A stretch of DNA of 42,507 nucleotides from Escherichia phage glasur. The notes beneath the pieces are model-generated. The model saw only the letters and a list, made by a program, of their open reading frames with translations, did no database searches and had not been told where the DNA came from. The stretch lies in sequence record MN850583.1, one strand, 5' to 3'. Made by a program: the position numbers and the translations under genes. Below are positions 1 through 42,507 of this stretch, in pieces (the first letter of the stretch is position 1; every line of letters starts with the position of its first letter).

Positions 1-23
1 TATCACTATAGTCACTTTCATAA
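1..23 (-). promoter_or_regulatory. Inverted exact copy of the 23-nt phage-promoter-like element (TTATGAAAGTGACTATAGTGATA on the minus strand), ending exactly at the window boundary
   Basis: Reverse complement of 1-23 is identical over 23 nt to 20845-20867. It matches the T7 promoter core ACTATAG in the same register. Orientation points out of the window. Confidence 0.45.
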
Positions 24-29
24 TTATCT

Positions 30-128
30 AATGATTACAGTAACTTATAACCTATCTGATAACGGTATCTATCTTATGCAATAACCTATTCAATCAAATA
101 TTTATTCTCAATGATTACAGTAACTTAT
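30..128. repeat. Two copies of a 19-nt direct repeat AATGATTACAGTAACTTAT (30-48 and 110-128) in the AT-rich left terminal region
   Basis: Read directly from the sequence; the copies are 80 bp apart and lie upstream of the early promoters. Confidence 0.7.
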
Positions 129-160
129 CCACTATTTGAGCTATTCAGTGAAAATAATTC

Positions 161-479: not shown

Positions 480-508
480 TTGACACGCTGAATACGATGT
501 GATGTAAT
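480..508 (+). promoter_or_regulatory. Host sigma70-type early promoter (TTGACA-N17-TGTAAT)
   Basis: TTGACA at 480-485, 17-nt spacer, TGaTGTAAT with -10 at 503-508. Confidence 0.65.
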
Positions 509-986
509 CAGCACCGAGTTGAAAGGTTGCAAAACAACCTGCTCTGAGTGAACGTAAACAGGCCACGTAGTGTCTCGGCCTCATGGGTATCCGGCGCAGC
601 TAGGAACTGGTGAGGGCATCGCTGAAAAGCAACGGTATCGCAACATTGCTAACGCCGTAGGGGTAGCGCCCGATGCAAGGGAACGGAGAAGCGCGATAGA
701 CGCAGCGCAGTATCAGCACAATCCCAAACGTCTTATAAGGCGCGGAGTATAGCGGGTAGGTAGTCAAACGGCTTGTTAGCTGGCAACGGTGAGCAAGATA
801 CGCGACGGACTGCTGGAAGACTCCTGAGAGTGGATGCAGACAATATCCATGGCGCGAAATGGGCGGGGCGATTTTTCAGGGTAGTGAATCCGACAAGCCA
901 ATCAATGCCACTGAGTGCAGACTGTACGGCGCGTCACAATGGGTTCACTATCCACCTGAAAATAGCCAACAACTGGAGAAATAACT

Positions 987-6970: not shown

Positions 6971-6993
6971 TTATGAAGGTGACTATATTGGAC
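6971..6993 (+). promoter_or_regulatory. Phage-promoter-like element, variant copy (TTATGAAgGTGACTATAtTGgAc)
   Basis: 19/23 identical to the 20845-20867 element and contains GTGACTATA. Placed directly upstream of the first gene of the replication module. Confidence 0.5.
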
Positions 6994-7208: not shown

Positions 7209-7642
7209 AGCCAAAGTACAAAGTCGGTGATGAAATCGTGGGCGACGATGGCACTGGCACCCGGTCGGGTAAGCTGGGTATCATCGCATGGGTTAACCCT
7301 GACCGCCGAGCGTGGGAGCGCAGCGGGGAGACTCGTTACATCGTGAGCTGGATTGGTGAGCGCCTCAATGCGCAGCCGGATATCAGCCACTACAAATCTG
7401 ATTGGCTGGAGGACAACACCAGTCTGGTCAGCACGCCAGCAGAGAAGCGCGGTCGGTTCATGTGTCTGCTTGAGGGTGGCAGCACGCCGCCGAAGATTGA
7501 GCACATCACTGAACGTGAAGCGCGTGATGAAGCTGAGCGTCTGGCTGAGCGCCACGGTGGTACTGTCCGTGTGCTGCAAGTTGTAGCCAGCGTGAAGATG
7601 AAGAAGAAGATTCAGTACATACCGGACTGGGATAACGAATGA
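7202..7642 (+). CDS. Protein of unknown function (about 147 aa)
   Basis: Track ORF 7193..7642; the ATG at 7202 is preferred over the GTG at 7193. Confidence 0.65.
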   Translation: MVKPKYKVGDEIVGDDGTGTRSGKLGIIAWVNPDRRAWERSGETRYIVSWIGERLNAQPDISHYKSDWLEDNTSLVSTPAEKRGRFMCLLEGGSTPPKIEHITEREARDEAERLAERHGGTVRVLQVVASVKMKKKIQYIPDWDNE

Positions 7643-10272: not shown

Positions 10273-10945
10273 TGCCGAAGCTAAGCGCGTGTGGGCAGAA
10301 GATATCTGCCGTCTGCTGCAATCCGAAGAACTGAACTTCGTGGTTGCCGGGGGAGGGGCAAGGGATACCGCGCTGGGTGTTGAGCCGAAGGACTACGACA
10401 TTGTAGTCTTTGGTTGGGGTGGTGATGTGAGCCGTGTGGCTGGCCGACTGGACTGGCTGGACTCCAGACTGGAGGACTACGCCAAGCAGAACGAGCTGGC
10501 GTATGAGTACATGCCGAGCTATCACGATGCAGCAGAGGGTGGCGACTTCGGCTCCCGTCTGTGGGGTGTGTATAAGATTGGCCCGGTCGATGTGATTATC
10601 AGTAAGTGCGGGTGCTGGTCGCAGGTACTGAACGAGTTCGACTTCAACCTGAACCAGTTCTACTTCCCGTCCAGCATCCCGCGTTACTCCGGCCAGTACA
10701 GCCGCGACCCCGGCGAGTTCATGGCGTACCCGTATGAGCCGAACCTGACTGCCGAAGATGTGCAGTGGTTCCCGGCGCTGGCCAGTCTGGTAGAAAGCTA
10801 CGATGACCTGCTGACTCTCCGTGTCTGCCGACCGGATGCCAGCCTGAGTCGTGTGGCCTACATGCTGGAGAAGCACGAGAAGTATCTGCCAGCCATTGAA
10901 GCATACGTTAATCGTATGCCCGACCACTTAGGTGGCAAAGCATAG
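10262..10945 (+). CDS. Nucleotidyltransferase with Pol-beta-type head domain of the CCA-adding/poly(A) polymerase class (227 aa)
   Basis: Motif FVVAGGGARDTALGVEPKDYDIVVFG matches the GGxxRDxxLGxxxxDxD signature of class II tRNA nucleotidyltransferases. ATG at 10262 with AAGGGGA upstream, inside track ORF 10121..10945. Confidence 0.6.
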   Translation: MISNAEAKRVWAEDICRLLQSEELNFVVAGGGARDTALGVEPKDYDIVVFGWGGDVSRVAGRLDWLDSRLEDYAKQNELAYEYMPSYHDAAEGGDFGSRLWGVYKIGPVDVIISKCGCWSQVLNEFDFNLNQFYFPSSIPRYSGQYSRDPGEFMAYPYEPNLTAEDVQWFPALASLVESYDDLLTLRVCRPDASLSRVAYMLEKHEKYLPAIEAYVNRMPDHLGGKA

Positions 10946-10955
10946 CGGGGGATTG

Positions 10956-13421
10956 ATGGCTATTCGAGCACAGATTATCGACGTTGAAACTGAGAACCAC
11001 GAGTGGTATGGGGAGCTGGCATCACCTCGCTGCCCTGACAACTACGTGGTGATGCAGGGACAGCGCGACTGTGTGCTGACCAAGGATGGCTGGGAGTTCT
11101 ACAAGCGTGAGGAATATCGGTACGCATCCCGTGAGGATTGGCTGGCGAACAAGAGCCTGCACCTCCACCCGGATACGAACATACTGGTTGCACACAACGC
11201 GCCGTATGAACTGAGCTGGTGGTTCGAGCATTACGGTGATGAGTTCAAGGCGTTCCTCTTACGAGGTGGCCGTGTATTCTGTACCGCGTATGCTGAGTAT
11301 CTGCTGACACACCAGCAATCCCAGTACCCATCCTTGAACGAGACAGCACCGAAGTATGGTGGTACTCACAAGGTGGATGCAGTCAAGGCAATGTGGGAGT
11401 CAGGTTATCTGACCAGCCAGATTGACGCTGAGCTGCTGAGCGAGTATCTGTCCGGGCCGTCCGGGGATATTGAGAACACGACCAAGCTGTTCGTTGGTCA
11501 GTGGGCAGAGCTGACGAAGCAGGGCATGTTGCAGATGGCACTGACCCGCTTCGAAGGTATGCTCATGTGGGCGTACATGATGCACTCCGGTCTACACGTT
11601 GACCGTGAGGTAGCAGAGCGTAACCGCCGTGAGTTGCAGGATTCAATCAGTGGGTTAACCGAGACACTGATGGGCTACCTGCCTGCCGACATGCCAAGTG
11701 AAGCGCGTGAGCAATTCAAGTTCACGTCTGCTTATCACATGAGCGCATTCGTGTTCGGCGGCGTGATGAAGTACAAGGCGCGAGTCGAGCGCCGGGATGG
11801 AGATGGCAATCTCATTTACGTGAAGGTGGATGCACCACTGTTCAAGCGTGGCAAGGACAAGTGGCTCAAGCATACCAGCGAGTGCGAGTGGGATGATGAG
11901 ACTGGGTTGTGGTATGACCCGGTTGAGAAGGTACACCAGACCATCTACTCCAGCGGGAAGAACAAGGGTGCGCCCAAGTTCGAGAAGTTGGCGACCGATG
12001 AGGTGGACACCAAGTGGGGTGAGGTACTGTTCCGGTTGCCCGGTCTGCTGCGTGTGCAGGACAGACGAGCGCGGGAGATTGCCGACAACCTTGAATGGGA
12101 AGACCCGAAGCGTCCGGGTGAATATCTCCGGCGCACTGGTGACTGGGTAGGTAAGCGCAAGCTGGCTGACGGTTCTCCTGTATTCAGTACGGCGGGTGAG
12201 GTGCTGGACATTCTGGCAGCTCGTAAGATTCCCGGCGTCGTGGAGATTGCTGACCGGGCCAAGGCGCAGAAAGACCTCGGCACCTACTACCTCAGCGAGA
12301 CGTTTGATGATGAGGGCAACGTGACTGGCCAGTCGGGGATGATGCAGTTCATCCAGCCGGACAGCATCGTACACCACACCATCAACATGACCGCGACTGA
12401 GACGACGCGATTGTCATCTCAGCGACCGAACAGCCAGAACCTGCCACGTAAAGGTACGAGTAAAGTTAAGCAGATGTTCACCTCTCGCTTTGGCGAAGGT
12501 GGCCGCATCGTTGAGGCTGACTACTCGGCACTGGAAGTGGTGGGGCTGGCCGGGTTCAGTAAGGACAAGAACCTGATTCGTGCATTGCTCGATGGTATCG
12601 ACATGCACTGTATGCGATTGTCTGCTCAACTCAATGAGCCATACGAGGACGTGCTTAAGAAGTGCAAGGATGAATCCCATCCTGACCATGCACGATACAG
12701 TCAGATGCGTACTGACATTAAGCCCAAGGCGTTCTCCTATCAGTATGGTGCAACAGCGCGAGGCATTGCCTACTCGACTGGTTGCTCGGAGGAAGAAGCA
12801 CAGGCGTTCATCGACAACGAGAAGGGTCTGTTCCCGGAAGTTGAAGAATGGTTCGACGCTGTAATCTTCCCCGCCGTTGAGCGTAGTGGACAGAGCAACG
12901 TGTTCAAGGAACAAGATGAGAACGGACGGTGGCAGGTGTATCGCCGTGGTCACTTCCGCTCGCCGGGTGGAACTTGTTATTCATTCCGTCAGTATGAGAA
13001 ATGGAACAAGGCGGCGCGTGCTTATCTGATGGAATACAAACCAACCCAAATGCGTAACTATCCTATTCAGGGTGAGACAGCGTTTTGGGTGCAGGGAATT
13101 GGTGGGCTGCTGTTCCGCTGGCTGCTGGCCAATGACTTCTTTGGTGGGCGTGTGGTTCCCATCAACCAAGTGCATGACGCATTCTATTTCGACGTGGCAC
13201 CTGACTGTCCTCACGAGTTCTTCGTTGGACTCAAGGCAATCATGGAATCCATCCCGGAATATTACAACCACATCTGGCCTGAATATAACCTGACAGTTCC
13301 GTTTCCGGCAGAGGTAGAAGCTGGGCCAAGCATGTACGAAAAGCATCACGTAGAGACGACAGCCGAAGAAGTGCTGGAGTTCAAACGTAACTTCCTGACG
13401 AGTAAGGGTATTAGCATATGA
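10956..13421 (+). CDS. Family A DNA polymerase (T7 gp5-like) with 3'-5' exonuclease domain
   Basis: Exo I motif IIDVETEN, polymerase motif A DYSALEVVG, motif B KAFSYQYGATARG and motif C VHDAFYFD. The ATG at 10956 is preferred; the track's GTG at 10932 is possible. Confidence 0.92.
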   Translation: MAIRAQIIDVETENHEWYGELASPRCPDNYVVMQGQRDCVLTKDGWEFYKREEYRYASREDWLANKSLHLHPDTNILVAHNAPYELSWWFEHYGDEFKAFLLRGGRVFCTAYAEYLLTHQQSQYPSLNETAPKYGGTHKVDAVKAMWESGYLTSQIDAELLSEYLSGPSGDIENTTKLFVGQWAELTKQGMLQMALTRFEGMLMWAYMMHSGLHVDREVAERNRRELQDSISGLTETLMGYLPADMPSEAREQFKFTSAYHMSAFVFGGVMKYKARVERRDGDGNLIYVKVDAPLFKRGKDKWLKHTSECEWDDETGLWYDPVEKVHQTIYSSGKNKGAPKFEKLATDEVDTKWGEVLFRLPGLLRVQDRRAREIADNLEWEDPKRPGEYLRRTGDWVGKRKLADGSPVFSTAGEVLDILAARKIPGVVEIADRAKAQKDLGTYYLSETFDDEGNVTGQSGMMQFIQPDSIVHHTINMTATETTRLSSQRPNSQNLPRKGTSKVKQMFTSRFGEGGRIVEADYSALEVVGLAGFSKDKNLIRALLDGIDMHCMRLSAQLNEPYEDVLKKCKDESHPDHARYSQMRTDIKPKAFSYQYGATARGIAYSTGCSEEEAQAFIDNEKGLFPEVEEWFDAVIFPAVERSGQSNVFKEQDENGRWQVYRRGHFRSPGGTCYSFRQYEKWNKAARAYLMEYKPTQMRNYPIQGETAFWVQGIGGLLFRWLLANDFFGGRVVPINQVHDAFYFDVAPDCPHEFFVGLKAIMESIPEYYNHIWPEYNLTVPFPAEVEAGPSMYEKHHVETTAEEVLEFKRNFLTSKGISI

Positions 13422-18147: not shown

Positions 18148-18384
18148 ATGATGAGCAGATACCAACGAGCCATTGAGGACACCGTGGTTGAGAAAGGTGT
18201 GTGCGGGGCGTGCCACGGCTGTGGCACATTCACCAGCATGACCATTCGACACGAGCTTGTCCAAACTGAATGTGAAGCCTGTGGTGGCACGGGCGTGACT
18301 GACCCGGCACTGCAACGCTCAGTGCTGCGGGAACAAGGTATGCGCTGCCAAGTGCAGCCGGGCTATGACCAACCAACGGAGTAA
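18148..18384 (+). CDS. Small zinc-finger protein with two DnaJ-type CxxCxGxG repeats (78 aa)
   Basis: CGACHGCG and CEACGGTG motifs. ATG with TAGGAGAT upstream, inside track ORF 18091..18384. Sits immediately upstream of the RNA polymerase gene. Confidence 0.6.
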   Translation: MMSRYQRAIEDTVVEKGVCGACHGCGTFTSMTIRHELVQTECEACGGTGVTDPALQRSVLREQGMRCQVQPGYDQPTE

Positions 18385-20819
18385 TGATGGACTTACTTGC
18401 TGAGCAGATTCGACTGGAAGAAGAAGCGCGAGCCAGACACCGCGAGGGCTGGCTGGATAATATCAGAGAGGCGTTGGCCGCTGGCCGGGCTGGTTCAGTA
18501 CCATTGCTCCAGCGTATGATGGTTGAGGCGTATCCTCAAGTTGAAGCTGCGATGCAAGAACTCCTGAATGAAACTGCCCGTGGTTATGGTGCGCAGTACC
18601 GGACATACATGCGTGAGCTGGGGCCGCGTGCCTGCGCCTCACTCGCATTGAGCATGGCTGTGTCTGGTGCTGCTGCTGAGCAGGCAGTGCTTAACTTGCT
18701 CAAGGATATGGGCAAGGCTCTGATGGCTGAGGTAGTGTACCTTCGGGCCAAGGCAGCCGGGCCTGTGCAGGCTGCTTACATGGCCAAGGTTAAGACTGAC
18801 GTTAAGCGCTCACGTTCCAAGTCAGCTAACCATGTGTACAACAAGGCGAAAGCGTCGGCGGCTAACGTTGGCGTTGAGCTGGATATCCTGCCGCAGCGTG
18901 CGCTCATCACCATTGGTAAGATGATGATGAAGTGCATTGAGCCTACTGGTCTGCTGGTCACTATGCGCGTTGGCGGCAACCACCGTCAGCGTGGCACTGC
19001 GCACTTCGCACTGCATGAAGATGTGCTGGCAACGATGAAAGATTGGATGGACTTGCCACGGGCAGACGGCCTGTGCTGTCCTCCAATGATTATCCCGCCA
19101 GCGCAGATTGCACGCGATGGTCGTAGCGGTATGTGGCACTCTCCGGGGCAGGCGGCCATGTACCGGGCAATCAGTCGCATGAATCACCGAGGCTATCGTG
19201 CGCTGGGTGTTGACCCACTGCCCATCATAGAGCCGTGTATGATGCTCAGCAGCGTTCCGTACCGAGTTAACCCAATGGTACTGGAGTTCCTGAGAACGAA
19301 CCGTACAGGCGTTATGGGGCTGCCTGTGCCACCGCGTGAGCCTAAGCTCCCGTTCACTATCCCGGCAGGCGTCAGCTTCGCACAGTACATTAGCAAGTTC
19401 CCACCCGAAATGCAGCAGCAGATGGAGTCGGAAGCGCACGAGTACAAGGTGAAGACCCGTCTGTATTACAACGAGCTGCGCAAGTTCACGTCACAGATGC
19501 TGGCGCTGAACGGTGCAGTCAAAGAGGCCGAGCGCTATGCGCCATACGATAGGGTATATCTCCCGACTTACGCCGATACGCGGGGCCGAATTTATTATTC
19601 TTCGACCCTTAACCCTCAGTCCATCGACGCGGTGCGAGCGCTGCTCGAACTTGCTGAACCAGTGGCTCTCGGAAGTGAGGGGCTGTTCTGGCTCAAGGTA
19701 CATGTTGCGAATTGTTTTGGATACGACGCCACAGACTTCGACGACCGGGCAGCGTGGACGGACAAAACACTCCCCAGACTACGTGAGGCGTGCCGTCTTC
19801 CAGAGGCATTTGATTCGTTCTGGTCAGAAGCCGATAGCCCTATCTCAGCGTGGGCTGCTGCTGTTGAACTCATTCGAGCTATCGACTCAGGAAGTCCTGA
19901 GACTTATCCCTGCCGAGTGGTTACGCAGTGGGACGCTACATGTTCAGGACTCCAGCACCTCAGTGCGATGCTACGAGATGAGGTTGGCGGTGCTGCTGTC
20001 AATCTTGTCGATAGCGTGGGAAGAAAAGCAGACATATATCTCAAGACGGCAGCAGCGGCGATGCAGGCTCTTGAAGAAAGTGAAGCGGCTGCGCCGACGA
20101 CAATGGGTTCGTGGCTTGTTTCCATCGGCATTGTTCGGGCTATGGCCAAGAAGCCAGTGATGACCTACGTGTATGGGGCAACCCGGCACGGCATGGTTGA
20201 TTACTACTGCCTGTACCTGCGCGAGAACCGGGTCAAGCTGCCGGAGGGCAAGAGCCTGCTGGAGTGTGCTCAGTTCATTGCTGAGTTTATGTGGGCTGCT
20301 ATCCCTCGCGTCGTGCCGAAAGCTGCTGAGCTTATGGCATGGTTGCAGGCTATCGCAGTAGAGGCTGCGAGCATGGGTGAGTACGTGGAGTTCACTGCGC
20401 CGTCAGGTCTGCGTGTGGTCAATCTGTATCAGGCCAGCAAAGAGATTGCGCTGAACAACATCAACCTCATGGGTATCCACGGCATCAAGCTGCGCGAGTA
20501 TCTGGATAAGCCAGACGGTCGCAAGTGTGCCGCTGCGATTGCTCCGAATTTTGTACACGCTATGGATGCCAGTCACATGATGAAGGTTCTGTGGGAGATG
20601 TGGAATAACGGGGTATACATGGTATCCATCCACGACTCGTTCGGTGTAGCGGCAGCTCATGCCGGGCTACTGCACAAGGTCATACGTGAAAAGTTTGTGC
20701 AGATGTATGAGGAATGCGACCCTATTCAGCAACTTGCGTCAGCATATAACCGTGAAGCTCCAGCTCGCGGTAATCTGGACATCCAGCTTGTGAAGAAATC
20801 AAGCAAGTTCTTCTGCTGA
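18384..20819 (+). CDS. Single-subunit DNA-dependent RNA polymerase (T7 RNAP family)
   Basis: 811 aa. [29 protein letters not shown] matches the T7 RNAP [20 protein letters not shown] region, and VSIHDSFG matches catalytic motif C. Located at the end of the DNA metabolism module. Confidence 0.93.
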   Translation: [811 protein letters not shown]

Positions 20820-20844: not shown

Positions 20845-20867
20845 TTATGAAAGTGACTATAGTGATA
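20845..20867 (+). promoter_or_regulatory. Phage RNAP promoter-like element TTATGAAAGTGACTATAGTGATA (reference copy)
   Basis: 16/23 identical to the T7 promoter TAATACGACTCACTATAGGGAGA in the same register, including ACTATAG at -7 to +1. Lies between the RNA polymerase gene and the structural module. Predicted +1 is the G at 20862. Confidence 0.6.
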
Positions 20868-20926: not shown

Positions 20927-21112
20927 ATGGGTAAAGAATCTCCATTAGATAGAGTAACATTCACTAAAGCTCAGTTAGCTCTACTGGAAAAGCACTTCGG
21001 TACATGGGTACAGGTAGGCAGAACAGTAACACCTGACACTAACCTTCCTCTCATTAACAGAGAAGCTGGTAAGCAGGATGTACTGGACTTCATCCGTGAA
21101 AGAGTGATTTGA
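20927..21112 (+). CDS. Small protein of unknown function (61 aa) with atypical AT-rich codon usage; moron-like
   Basis: ATG at 20927 with GAGAGGA upstream, inside track ORF 20828..21112. Uses AGA Arg and TTA Leu codons and is visibly more AT-rich than neighbouring genes. Flanked by copies of the promoter-like element. Confidence 0.55.
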   Translation: MGKESPLDRVTFTKAQLALLEKHFGTWVQVGRTVTPDTNLPLINREAGKQDVLDFIRERVI

Positions 21113-21134
21113 AATGAAAGTGACTATTATGGGA
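21112..21134 (+). promoter_or_regulatory. Phage-promoter-like element, divergent copy (aaATGAAAGTGACTATtaTGggA) overlapping the start codon of the next gene
   Basis: 14-nt core ATGAAAGTGACTAT is identical to the reference copy, but -1 and +1 differ (T and A instead of A and G), so function is doubtful. Confidence 0.3.
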
Positions 21135-21533
21135 AATACAACGCACACGACTATGCCTCTTGACATTCGGCGTGCGGTGGCCGAGGGCATACAAGCCGAG
21201 CGGCCTTGGTCAGACCTATCTCCCGATGTGATAGTCGAACGCATGTACGAGGCTACTGCCGCTGGTTGCGTTGACGTTTACATTACTGCTGACGACGATG
21301 GCCTCATGGCCGTTGCTCACATCGGCAGGTTATTCGATATTCATGTGGGCGAGATGGTGGTCGTTATGGCCTCATACGTCTGGCCCCAGTACAGAAACCG
21401 TGGAGTGATGCGTGCCATCCTCCGTGTACTCAAAGACGTGGCCCGTTCCGAGGGTGTACGTTGGTGCGGTTACTCCCACATGGTGCGGCCTTACGTTCAG
21501 GAGTACCGCTTCATAGATTTGGAGAAACCGTAA
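21114..21533 (+). CDS. Protein of unknown function (139 aa); weak GNAT-acetyltransferase-like motif
   Basis: ORF track. QYRNRGVMRAIL loosely resembles the acetyl-CoA-binding motif A. Start codon lies inside the promoter-like repeat, so the start is uncertain. Confidence 0.55.
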   Translation: MKVTIMGNTTHTTMPLDIRRAVAEGIQAERPWSDLSPDVIVERMYEATAAGCVDVYITADDDGLMAVAHIGRLFDIHVGEMVVVMASYVWPQYRNRGVMRAILRVLKDVARSEGVRWCGYSHMVRPYVQEYRFIDLEKP

Positions 21534-40539: not shown

Positions 40540-41028
40540 ATGAAACTGTCTCGGCTTATGGCCGGGGCAGTCTTGTCTCTGTCCTTGACATTGACGGGCT
40601 GCTCCGCAACAAGCGCACTGTCTGCTGTAACCTCGGCTGTCTCTCCCAATAAGCCGGAACTAACGGCACAGGTTGGCGCAGAGAACACGAAACAAGGCAT
40701 CGGCTTGACTGCGAAACAGTCCGACGAAACGAAGGTCGGTGACGTATCTGGTAACGCGCAAGTGGATACCGCTAAACAGGGTAGTGATTCGACGACTGTG
40801 AAGGACGTCACAGGAGGCTCTGTAAACGCTTCTAAGCAGGGGTCGCAAATGACCCAAGGGAACGTACAGGCTAAAACTGTTGTCATCTCACAGAGCGACC
40901 CACGCAGCCTCCTATGGGCTTTCGGCATGGGTCTGACCTGTATCTTAGGCTTGGTAATGTGGTTTGTACCATCTCCGTGGAAAAAGAAGGTGAAAGATGA
41001 CGGAAGCAAAGAAGGAGCCAGCTCCTAA
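40540..41028 (+). CDS. Putative unimolecular spanin (N-terminal lipoprotein signal plus C-terminal transmembrane helix)
   Basis: Lipobox LTLTGC at the N-terminus, Thr/Ser/Lys-rich periplasmic region, C-terminal helix LLWAFGMGLTCILGLVMWFV followed by basic PWKKKVKD. Adjacent to the endolysin gene. Confidence 0.5.
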   Translation: MKLSRLMAGAVLSLSLTLTGCSATSALSAVTSAVSPNKPELTAQVGAENTKQGIGLTAKQSDETKVGDVSGNAQVDTAKQGSDSTTVKDVTGGSVNASKQGSQMTQGNVQAKTVVISQSDPRSLLWAFGMGLTCILGLVMWFVPSPWKKKVKDDGSKEGASS

Positions 41029-41916: not shown

Positions 41917-41999
41917 GGGTATCCGAAAGCTGACACAATGAACAGGCCGTGGGTGCAATACCCCGGCTTGAAAATTGAACGTTTATGCGTGGGCCTCCC

Positions 42000-42507
42000 T
42001 CGACCCAAATGACCGCGCGTACCCCCATGACGTGTGCGCGGATTAGCCTCGCGACGTGCGCGATATTGCTCGCGTGCGCTGCGCGGCGCGTCAAGAGGAT
42101 TGCCTGCGTGCGGTATAGCTCGTGCGTGTCGCGTTTCATCGTCTGCCGTGTGGCGTGCTGTGCGCTGTCCTGCTGGCTGTGCTGTGCGGTGCTGTCCTAT
42201 GGGGACGCTCTGCGCTGGCTGTGCTGTGCTGTGTGCTGCGCTCGGTCGTGCGGGTATCTGTCTCTTTTCGTCGTGCGCCGTGGTGCTGTGTGGTGGTGTG
42301 GTGTAGCGGTGGTGCTGCCGTGGTGCTGTCCTGTCTGCTGGTCTACTGTCTGCGCCGCCAGCTCTGCGCGTCATGCTCTGCTACTGTGTCACCTGTCCTA
42401 CTGCGTTCACTGGCTGCCGCCTGTCATCCTGTCGGATTCCATCCGTTGCCGTTCCGCGCTCGCTTGTTTCGGCTGCGCCGCGCTCGCTCTGCGTATCTAG
42501 CGATACA
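42000..42507. repeat. GC-rich, strongly strand-skewed (A-depleted) right terminal region with short degenerate GTGCTGT/GCTGTCC repeats
   Basis: About 6 A residues in roughly 230 nt (42130-42360) on the + strand. Recurring GGCTGTGCTGTGC and GTGCTGTCC units. Only Cys/Arg-rich ORFs with no ribosome-binding site. Confidence 0.6.
42255..42270 (+). promoter_or_regulatory. Candidate T7-RNAP class II pause/termination (concatemer-junction-like) motif TATCTGTCTCTTTTCG
   Basis: Resembles the T7 class II signal ATCTGTT followed by a U-rich tract, with one mismatch. In T7 this signal lies in the terminal repeat. Confidence 0.35.

Follow-up and report, generated by a model that had tools for sequence, protein, structure and literature searches.

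The closest described counterpart of the locus examined here belongs to the Pseudomonas phage LUZ19, in which ONT-cappable-seq identified four phage-specific promoters (Putzeys et al. 2024, microLife, PMC10914365). Two of these, P007 and P008, directly follow the RNA polymerase gene, one lies in the structural region, and P001 has the opposite orientation, its antisense transcripts extending to gp47-49 at the right end of the genome (PMC10914365). The authors of that study proposed that, on the circularised genome, P001 keeps transcription from being elongated into the early genes, and the same layout of motifs was also found in 15 other Phikmvvirus species (PMC10914365). In the LUZ19 sequence the terminal repeat occupies nt 1-472, the promoter lies at ~732-751 (minus-strand motif at 748), and the host promoters begin at 913.

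Phage promoters near the left end are also present in T7 and in KP34 (Drulisvirus). T7 phiOL, which like phiOR is a phage promoter in terminal non-coding DNA that serves as a secondary replication origin, has the left repeat on one side and the host early promoters on the other, with its +1 at 405, 245 bp from the end of the repeat (160). KP34 carries a near-consensus left-end copy (475) of its strong promoter TAATGTTACAGGAGTA, ~260 bp inside its annotated 216-bp repeat and before a host promoter. T7 has, in addition, the leftward promoter A0 (annotated at nt 224), which is situated just inside the left repeat and transcribes toward the genome end; to our knowledge, no function has been assigned to A0.

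The sequence analysed here, referred to as the window, is the whole 42,507-bp stretch from Escherichia phage glasur (GC 55.4%), a phiKMV-like coliphage of the genus Bonnellvirus with a phiKMV-like gene order. Its first 3 kb find their best matches, at 97% identity, in usur and forsur, which are Bonnellvirus coliphages (Autographiviridae). The element at window positions 1-23 is the Bonnellvirus counterpart of LUZ19 P001, in another genus and another host group. Like P001, it carries the motif of the post-polymerase promoters in an orientation opposed to all genes; it has the left terminal repeat on one side and the host early promoters on the other, with ~260-275 bp separating it from the repeat boundary, an arrangement that is seen directly in LUZ19 and in J8-65, the type phage of Bonnellvirus, and by homology in glasur; and an A-poor block stretches from the physical end to the promoter. 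The promoter sequences themselves are unrelated (LUZ19 TATGTCACACACA versus glasur ATGAAAGTGACTATAG), the one phage belongs to the Pseudomonas Krylovirinae and the other to the enterobacterial Bonnellvirus, and transcription has been demonstrated for LUZ19 only. The glasur element shares with phiOL and with the KP34 copy its location and a similar spacing from the repeat, but both of those promoters point rightward, whereas the glasur element points leftward into the repeat. Promoters of the phiOL/phiOR type run rightward into AT-rich DNA; in glasur the promoter has its AT-rich DNA upstream. The left end of T7 is moreover A-rich (30%), and the terminal block of KP34 only mildly A-poor (15.8%). 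A0 shares the leftward direction and the position just inside the left repeat, but it is a promoter for the E. coli host RNA polymerase and not for the phage enzyme. In four lineages a phage promoter is found 245-275 bp inside the left repeat boundary, rightward in T7 (405) and KP34 (475), and leftward in J8-65 (~533) and LUZ19 (~732).

The 23-nt element and its copies in glasur

The reverse complement of window positions 1-23 (TATCACTATAGTCACTTTCATAA) is identical to positions 20845-20867 (TTATGAAAGTGACTATAGTGATA), and so the exact inverted copy on which the original prediction was built is borne out, both by sequence identity and by a shuffle test: at up to 3 mismatches these two sites are the only matches in the window, and none is expected from 100 dinucleotide shuffles. 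The 23-mer is the longest exact repeat of the 42.5 kb window and the sole one of at least 20 nt when both strands are considered. Beyond these 23 nt the similarity between 1-23 and 20845 extends weakly, to 39 nt (85%). The consensus copies, which are the leftward and the post-polymerase ones, have a common sequence from -15 through +6, with GTGATA as the first six transcribed bases. By analogy with the TATA-G of T7 and SP6 promoters, the +1 of the leftward copy is predicted to be the minus-strand G at window position 6. No ORF crosses window positions 1-160, which places the leftward promoter in non-coding DNA. The copies and the genes that give them their context are as follows.

1-23, minus strand: P_left, predicted leftward promoter recognised by the single-subunit RNA polymerase of the phage; an exact match, inverted, to the post-polymerase promoter, with position and orientation conserved in relatives
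6971-6993, plus strand: diverged rightward copy TTATGAAGGTGACTATATTGGAC, with 5 mismatches, before the primase/helicase/DNA-polymerase block; switches class in relatives
10932-13421: DNA polymerase gene
18384-20819: RNA polymerase gene, which closes the DNA-metabolism block and is followed by the structural, terminase and lysis genes
20845-20867, plus strand: consensus rightward (late) promoter, 26 nt past the RNA polymerase stop and ahead of the structural genes
21112-21134, plus strand: second post-polymerase promoter copy AAATGAAAGTGACTATTATGGGA, with 6 mismatches; conserved, and switching class with the other copies in relatives

The copy at 21112-21134 overlaps the ATG of the ORF at 21114-21533 (ATGAAAGTG..., Met-Lys-Val), so that a transcript begun there would be without that start codon. 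A scan of IMG/VR for the element returned 12 stretches on 11 contigs, just one of which is a Bonnellvirus contig.

Co-variation of promoter class and RNA polymerase

The element was followed through 15 Bonnellvirus genomes, glasur among them, together with LIMEzero (genus Waewaevirus). In each genome the rightward copies number two or three, and a single leftward copy lies at the shared boundary between A-poor and AT-rich DNA. The promoters fall into five classes in all, within each of which all copies, the leftward one included, switch together, and in every genome checked (the 15 of Bonnellvirus and LIMEzero) the leftward copy is of the same class as the other promoter copies of its genome. 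Alignment of the RNA polymerase C-termini shows this region to be highly conserved save for a segment just upstream of APNFVH, which differs by class. In glasur this segment comprises residues 686-702 (KEIALNNINLMGIHGIK; codons 20439-20489, plus strand), which, from its location just upstream of APNFVH, we take to be equivalent to the specificity loop of T7 RNA polymerase. The classes, with their core sequences and loop segments, are listed below.

GTGAC class: core ATGAAAGTGACTATAG; glasur, forsur, RZ4 and ROV85; loop segment KEIALNNINLMGIHGIK
GTGTC class: core ATGAAAGTGTCTATAG; BHUENT7, Ec1-ASingh, SS-2025, LF82-23, HHU8 and altidsur; loop segment KETMLNNINLMGIHSIK
GCTAC class: core ATGAAAGCTACTATAG; usur and Kc261; loop segment KESPM-HLHLMGVHQIK
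GTAACTGT class: core ATGAAAGTAACTGT; J8-65, smaasur and Lidtsur; loop segment (J8-65 and smaasur) KETTM-GIKLMGVHAIK
GGCAAGCAC class: LIMEzero

The comparison of glasur with usur illustrates the point: the two genomes are ~91% identical overall, yet they differ in promoter class (GTGAC versus GCTAC), and the loop of the polymerase has changed to match. In the LIMEzero record a 'putative phage specific promoter' is annotated at 20330-20349, right after the RNA polymerase gene, and a phage promoter at 7294-7313, before the primase gene, with a consensus unlike that of glasur. Two unannotated copies were located here, a third rightward copy and a leftward copy at 656-637, the latter lying at the boundary between GC-rich, A-poor DNA and AT-rich DNA, ahead of the host promoters.

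This three-way co-variation of leftward copy, rightward copies and specificity loop, across 15 genomes and LIMEzero, upholds the proposal that the element is a promoter of the phage RNA polymerase and that its copy at 1-23 faces leftward. As comparative evidence it argues strongly that the phage enzyme has its cognate promoter in this element and that the leftward copy has been kept functional; judged from the co-variation, the feature is shown to be under selection, and its identity as a leftward phage promoter internal to the left terminal region is regarded as established by the comparison. The same data bear on whether the leftward copy might instead be a duplicate without function, or have arisen by chance or as an assembly chimera, as might be suspected when a genome has just two exact copies and one of them sits at a contig edge. 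Chance would supply no such match. The same leftward copy is found internal to the contigs of at least 14 independently assembled relatives, and an assembly chimera is therefore not the explanation. The leftward copy also switches class together with the other copies through all five classes, and its LUZ19 counterpart P001 is transcribed. Such an origin for the leftward copy, to which almost no probability can be attached, is in effect refuted by the comparative data.

Position of the physical genome ends

The start of the window coincides exactly with that of the 23-nt repeat and falls on a very sharp compositional boundary, where an arbitrary cut would rarely land. From the coincidence of element and window boundary the original prediction drew the view that the genome terminus is defined at positions 1-23, so that the element would mark or define a physical terminus or packaging site and the window would start where the DNA molecule does. 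That view finds no support in related records. The last base of the window and its first base are contiguous in 14 other records, in which an 800-nt query across end and start is covered in one piece (...GCGATACA followed directly by TATCACTATAG...); in usur and forsur the junction was read directly, ...CTGCGTATCTAGCGATACA running straight into TATCACTATAGTC.... In J8-65, LUZ19 and KP34, all with annotated repeats, the nearby phage promoter lies 260-275 bp inside the repeat boundary and not at an end.

The repeats of J8-65, at 1-259 and 40723-40981, are identical over 259 bp (the depositor's annotation, in a paper that gives no method), the leftward promoter is at ~533-555, ~275 bp inside the repeat boundary, and the first host promoter is at ~690. 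The left end begins with TCGAC, which at the right end is preceded by GGGCCTCCC. In glasur this J8-65-end motif sits at 41991-42004. There is no terminal redundancy between the two ends of the glasur window. The source study, which used Nextera XT libraries, de novo assembly in CLC Genomics Workbench and additional SPAdes assemblies, reports no terminus determination (Olsen et al. 2020, PMC7552041). Assembly offers, moreover, a trivial reason for a cut at the 23-mer, the sole repeated word of at least 20 nt. A terminus at the element is accordingly considered very improbable.

The physical left end of glasur is predicted, by homology with J8-65, to lie near window position 42000. Together with the anatomy of J8-65 and LUZ19, the position of the terminal motif implies that the window holds one collapsed terminal repeat near its right end and that the promoter is internal. 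The predicted features on either side of the promoter are these.

41991-42004, plus strand: terminal motif, GGGCCTCCC followed directly by TCGAC; conserved as far as LIMEzero, with the J8-65 repeat starting at TCGAC
42000-42243, no strand assigned: predicted single collapsed direct terminal repeat, by J8-65 homology; left boundary at the T of TCGAC, right boundary +/-10 nt
42000-42507, minus strand: template of the leftward transcript, from P_left to the predicted left end; non-coding, A-poor on the plus strand
42255-42268, plus strand: TATCTGTCTCTTTT, which resembles the class II pause/termination (concatemer-junction) signal of T7, just right of the predicted repeat end
24-160, no strand assigned: AT-rich (72%) spacer behind P_left, containing a 19-nt exact direct repeat, AATGATTACAGTAACTTAT
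161-190, 264-292, 401-429 and 480-508, plus strand: four sigma-70-type early promoters, TTGACA-N17-TGTAAT, directed toward the early genes

The terminal motif is a candidate for the context of terminase cleavage. The repeated AATGATTACAGTAACTTAT, at 30-48 and 110-128, includes the near-palindrome TTACAGTAA, its second copy is conserved across the genus, and it may be a protein-binding site. The four tandem early promoters are preceded by TGC or GA; they have G at -10 position 2, for which reason a simple consensus scan misses them, and their equivalents are annotated as host promoters in LIMEzero.

The exact start of the record at the element most likely arose by accident during assembly, the record being a permutation of a collapsed circular assembly. 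Being the sole repeated word of at least 20 nt, the 23-mer would be the one place where a de Bruijn graph of that word size, built from a circular-looking assembly, could branch, and the range of automatic word sizes used by CLC enters into this explanation. The sister records from the same study are arbitrary permutations, given on either strand. As a general rule, cutting at repeated words was discarded: forsur ends mid-gene and at no repeated word despite having the same 23-nt repeat, and the explanation is for that reason limited to the glasur record, as its likely cause. Identical end overlaps of 121 nt in RZ4 and BHUENT7 were likewise rejected as terminal repeats; they occur at arbitrary genome positions, which is typical of untrimmed assembler overlap. 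An exact-protein look-up with the endolysin, aimed at contigs ending at physical termini, gave no match.

A-poor terminal DNA and possible roles of the leftward promoter

With the left end near 42000, as homology indicates, there would be ~508 bp of template left of the promoter even on a monomer. From the +1 at 6 to position 42000 the predicted leftward RNA is 514 nt long and contains 41 U (8%), the plus strand being A-poor over the template and the RNA correspondingly U-poor. The plus strand from 42003 to 42507 has 7.7% A, against 22.9% for the genome, and is the genome's lowest-A stretch of 505 nt; the four longest A-free runs of the genome (48-60 nt) all fall within it. In all genomes compared the composition shifts abruptly at the promoter, between A-poor and AT-rich DNA. 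The A content of the corresponding terminal DNA in other phages, with the direction of the left-end phage promoter, is as follows.

LUZ19, 1-730: A 6.7%, promoter leftward
J8-65, 1-525: A 8.6%, promoter leftward
LIMEzero, 27-636: A 12%, promoter leftward
KP34, 1-474: A 15.8%, promoter rightward
T7, 1-404: A 30%, promoter rightward
Dev-CD-23823, 1-500: A 35%, promoter rightward

The combination of A-poor end and leftward promoter is not a universal module of the Autographiviridae: Dev-CD-23823, which has a validated promoter, possesses a rightward copy alone, at nt 19, and no A-poor end. The A-poor block of glasur leaves a stop-free ORF of 171 codons at 41985-42500, which is annotated as a hypothetical protein in relatives (forsur_28, Kc261 QQM15444, HHU8 XMR00743 and Lidtsur QBZ71559) and which is probably non-coding. 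A conserved 5' hairpin in the leftward RNA was considered; hairpins are predicted in most genomes, but the structures differ and the case is unconvincing. A scan for intrinsic terminators around the junction gave a count no higher than in shuffled sequence, and an Rfam scan of the whole window matched no family.

The motif TATCTGTCTCTTTT at 42255 is kept in all Bonnellvirus genomes aligned. It reads ATCTGTC followed by TCTTTT, one mismatch from the strict T7 class II consensus ATCTGTT, in which any base change has been reported to abolish function for T7 RNA polymerase. In T7 the 160-bp repeat is followed at once, at nt 161, by ATCTGTT, and the glasur motif likewise presents ATCTGT and then a T-run on the plus strand, directly past the predicted terminal repeat. 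It differs from the T7 signal in reading ATCTGTC in glasur and ATCTATC in J8-65, and the glasur polymerase is only distantly related to that of T7. ATCTGTY occurs at chance frequency genome-wide, so that only the position and the conservation of the 42255 motif are suggestive. By analogy with T7, TATCTGTCTCTTTT could act on rightward transcription only.

Taking these observations together, it is highly probable that the element is a consensus-strength leftward phage promoter corresponding to P001, and not a genome end, with a likely local role at the concatemer junction. In the layout that is proposed, the left end would consist of the TCGAC end, a repeat of ~245 bp, the ATCTGT/T-run motif, ~250 bp of A-poor non-coding DNA and the promoter, beyond which would follow the 137-bp AT-rich spacer and the four rightward host early promoters. 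The leftward promoter would fire from the middle to the late stage of infection, once the phage polymerase has been made, and would yield a U-poor, untranslatable RNA across the terminal repeat. On a monomer this transcript would run off after ~514 nt; on replicative concatemers it would go on, antisense, into the lysis genes, as in LUZ19. Read-through of this kind into the right end, which had been foreseen for a concatemer or circle, agrees with the published result for LUZ19 P001 (PMC10914365).

The most likely role of the leftward promoter would be a local one at the concatemer junction. One form that such a role could take is that the promoter would oppose late rightward read-through and insulate the early region from it; another is that, while junctions are being processed, transcription from the promoter would hold the terminal-repeat region open. 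Insulation is plausible, but it leaves unexplained the U-poor transcript and the similar spacing from promoter to repeat (274 bp in J8-65, ~260 bp in LUZ19). T7 RNA polymerases that meet head-on are said (by Ma and McAllister in 2009) to be able to pass one another, which counts against insulation, and rightward read-through might already be halted by the junction-like motif at 42255; neither consideration accounts for a U-poor transcript. Junction processing by way of a stable RNA:DNA hybrid, or replication of the ends, is a further possible role.

The latter suggests a comparison with T7 phiOL and phiOR, in which the leftward promoter would be mainly a replication element, its transcript priming DNA synthesis or opening the duplex for loading of the helicase-primase close to the left end. 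The presence of a phage promoter 245-275 bp inside the left repeat in T7, KP34, J8-65 and LUZ19 suggests a positionally conserved element, a spacer of 72% AT with repeated 19-mers adjoins the glasur promoter, and a U-poor RNA would be expected to form an unusually stable RNA:DNA hybrid. The orientation, however, is opposite to that of phiOL and of the KP34 copy. In the primary origin of T7 the AT-rich DNA lies downstream of the promoter, and in glasur it lies upstream. Leftward priming would copy only ~0.5 kb, and no mapped origin was found in the literature for any phiKMV-like phage. A role chiefly in replication is on balance improbable, though less so than a terminus at the element.

It is somewhat easier to envisage, if still doubtful, that the leftward transcript drives duplication of the repeat or initiation of packaging. 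Polymerase travelling leftward over the repeat would form a stable U-free R-loop, and the single strands thereby exposed at the concatemer junction would be open to nicking by terminase and to strand-displacement synthesis, in a variant of the concatemer processing that in T7 depends on transcription. In J8-65 and LUZ19 the A-poor block spans exactly the interval from the physical end to the promoter, and ends there. The three lineages whose promoter faces leftward are strongly depleted of A (6.7-12%), KP34 is less so (15.8%), and T7 and Dev-CD-23823 are not depleted at all (30-35%). Promoter and repeat are similarly spaced in distant genera (274 and ~260 bp), and a motif resembling that of the T7 junction is located at the repeat boundary. 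These relationships are purely correlative and come from few lineages, the A-depletion could instead serve to exclude promoters and start and stop codons from terminal DNA, and the hypothesis published for LUZ19 is insulation, not packaging (PMC10914365). With equal reserve it may be suggested that the leftward promoter and the A-poor block form one conserved cis-acting module in Bonnellvirus, Waewaevirus and Phikmvvirus, whose U-free transcript or R-loop would be required for junction processing or end replication; this is a minority view beside the local role at the concatemer junction preferred here.

The likely position of the genome end is thereby corrected for the glasur record, and P001, which was mapped experimentally but unexplained in LUZ19, is extended to the enterobacterial phiKMV-like phages. 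Bonnellvirus holds at least four natural classes of polymerase/promoter specificity, separated by few loop residues and by one to three promoter bases, and these are candidate orthogonal transcription pairs. The depletion of A exactly over the leftward transcript in three lineages provides a testable handle on the purpose of the antisense promoter. If the proposal of a single cis-acting module were true, that module would be an inverted functional equivalent of the phiOL/concatemer-junction system of T7, and its product would be more than an antisense or insulating RNA.
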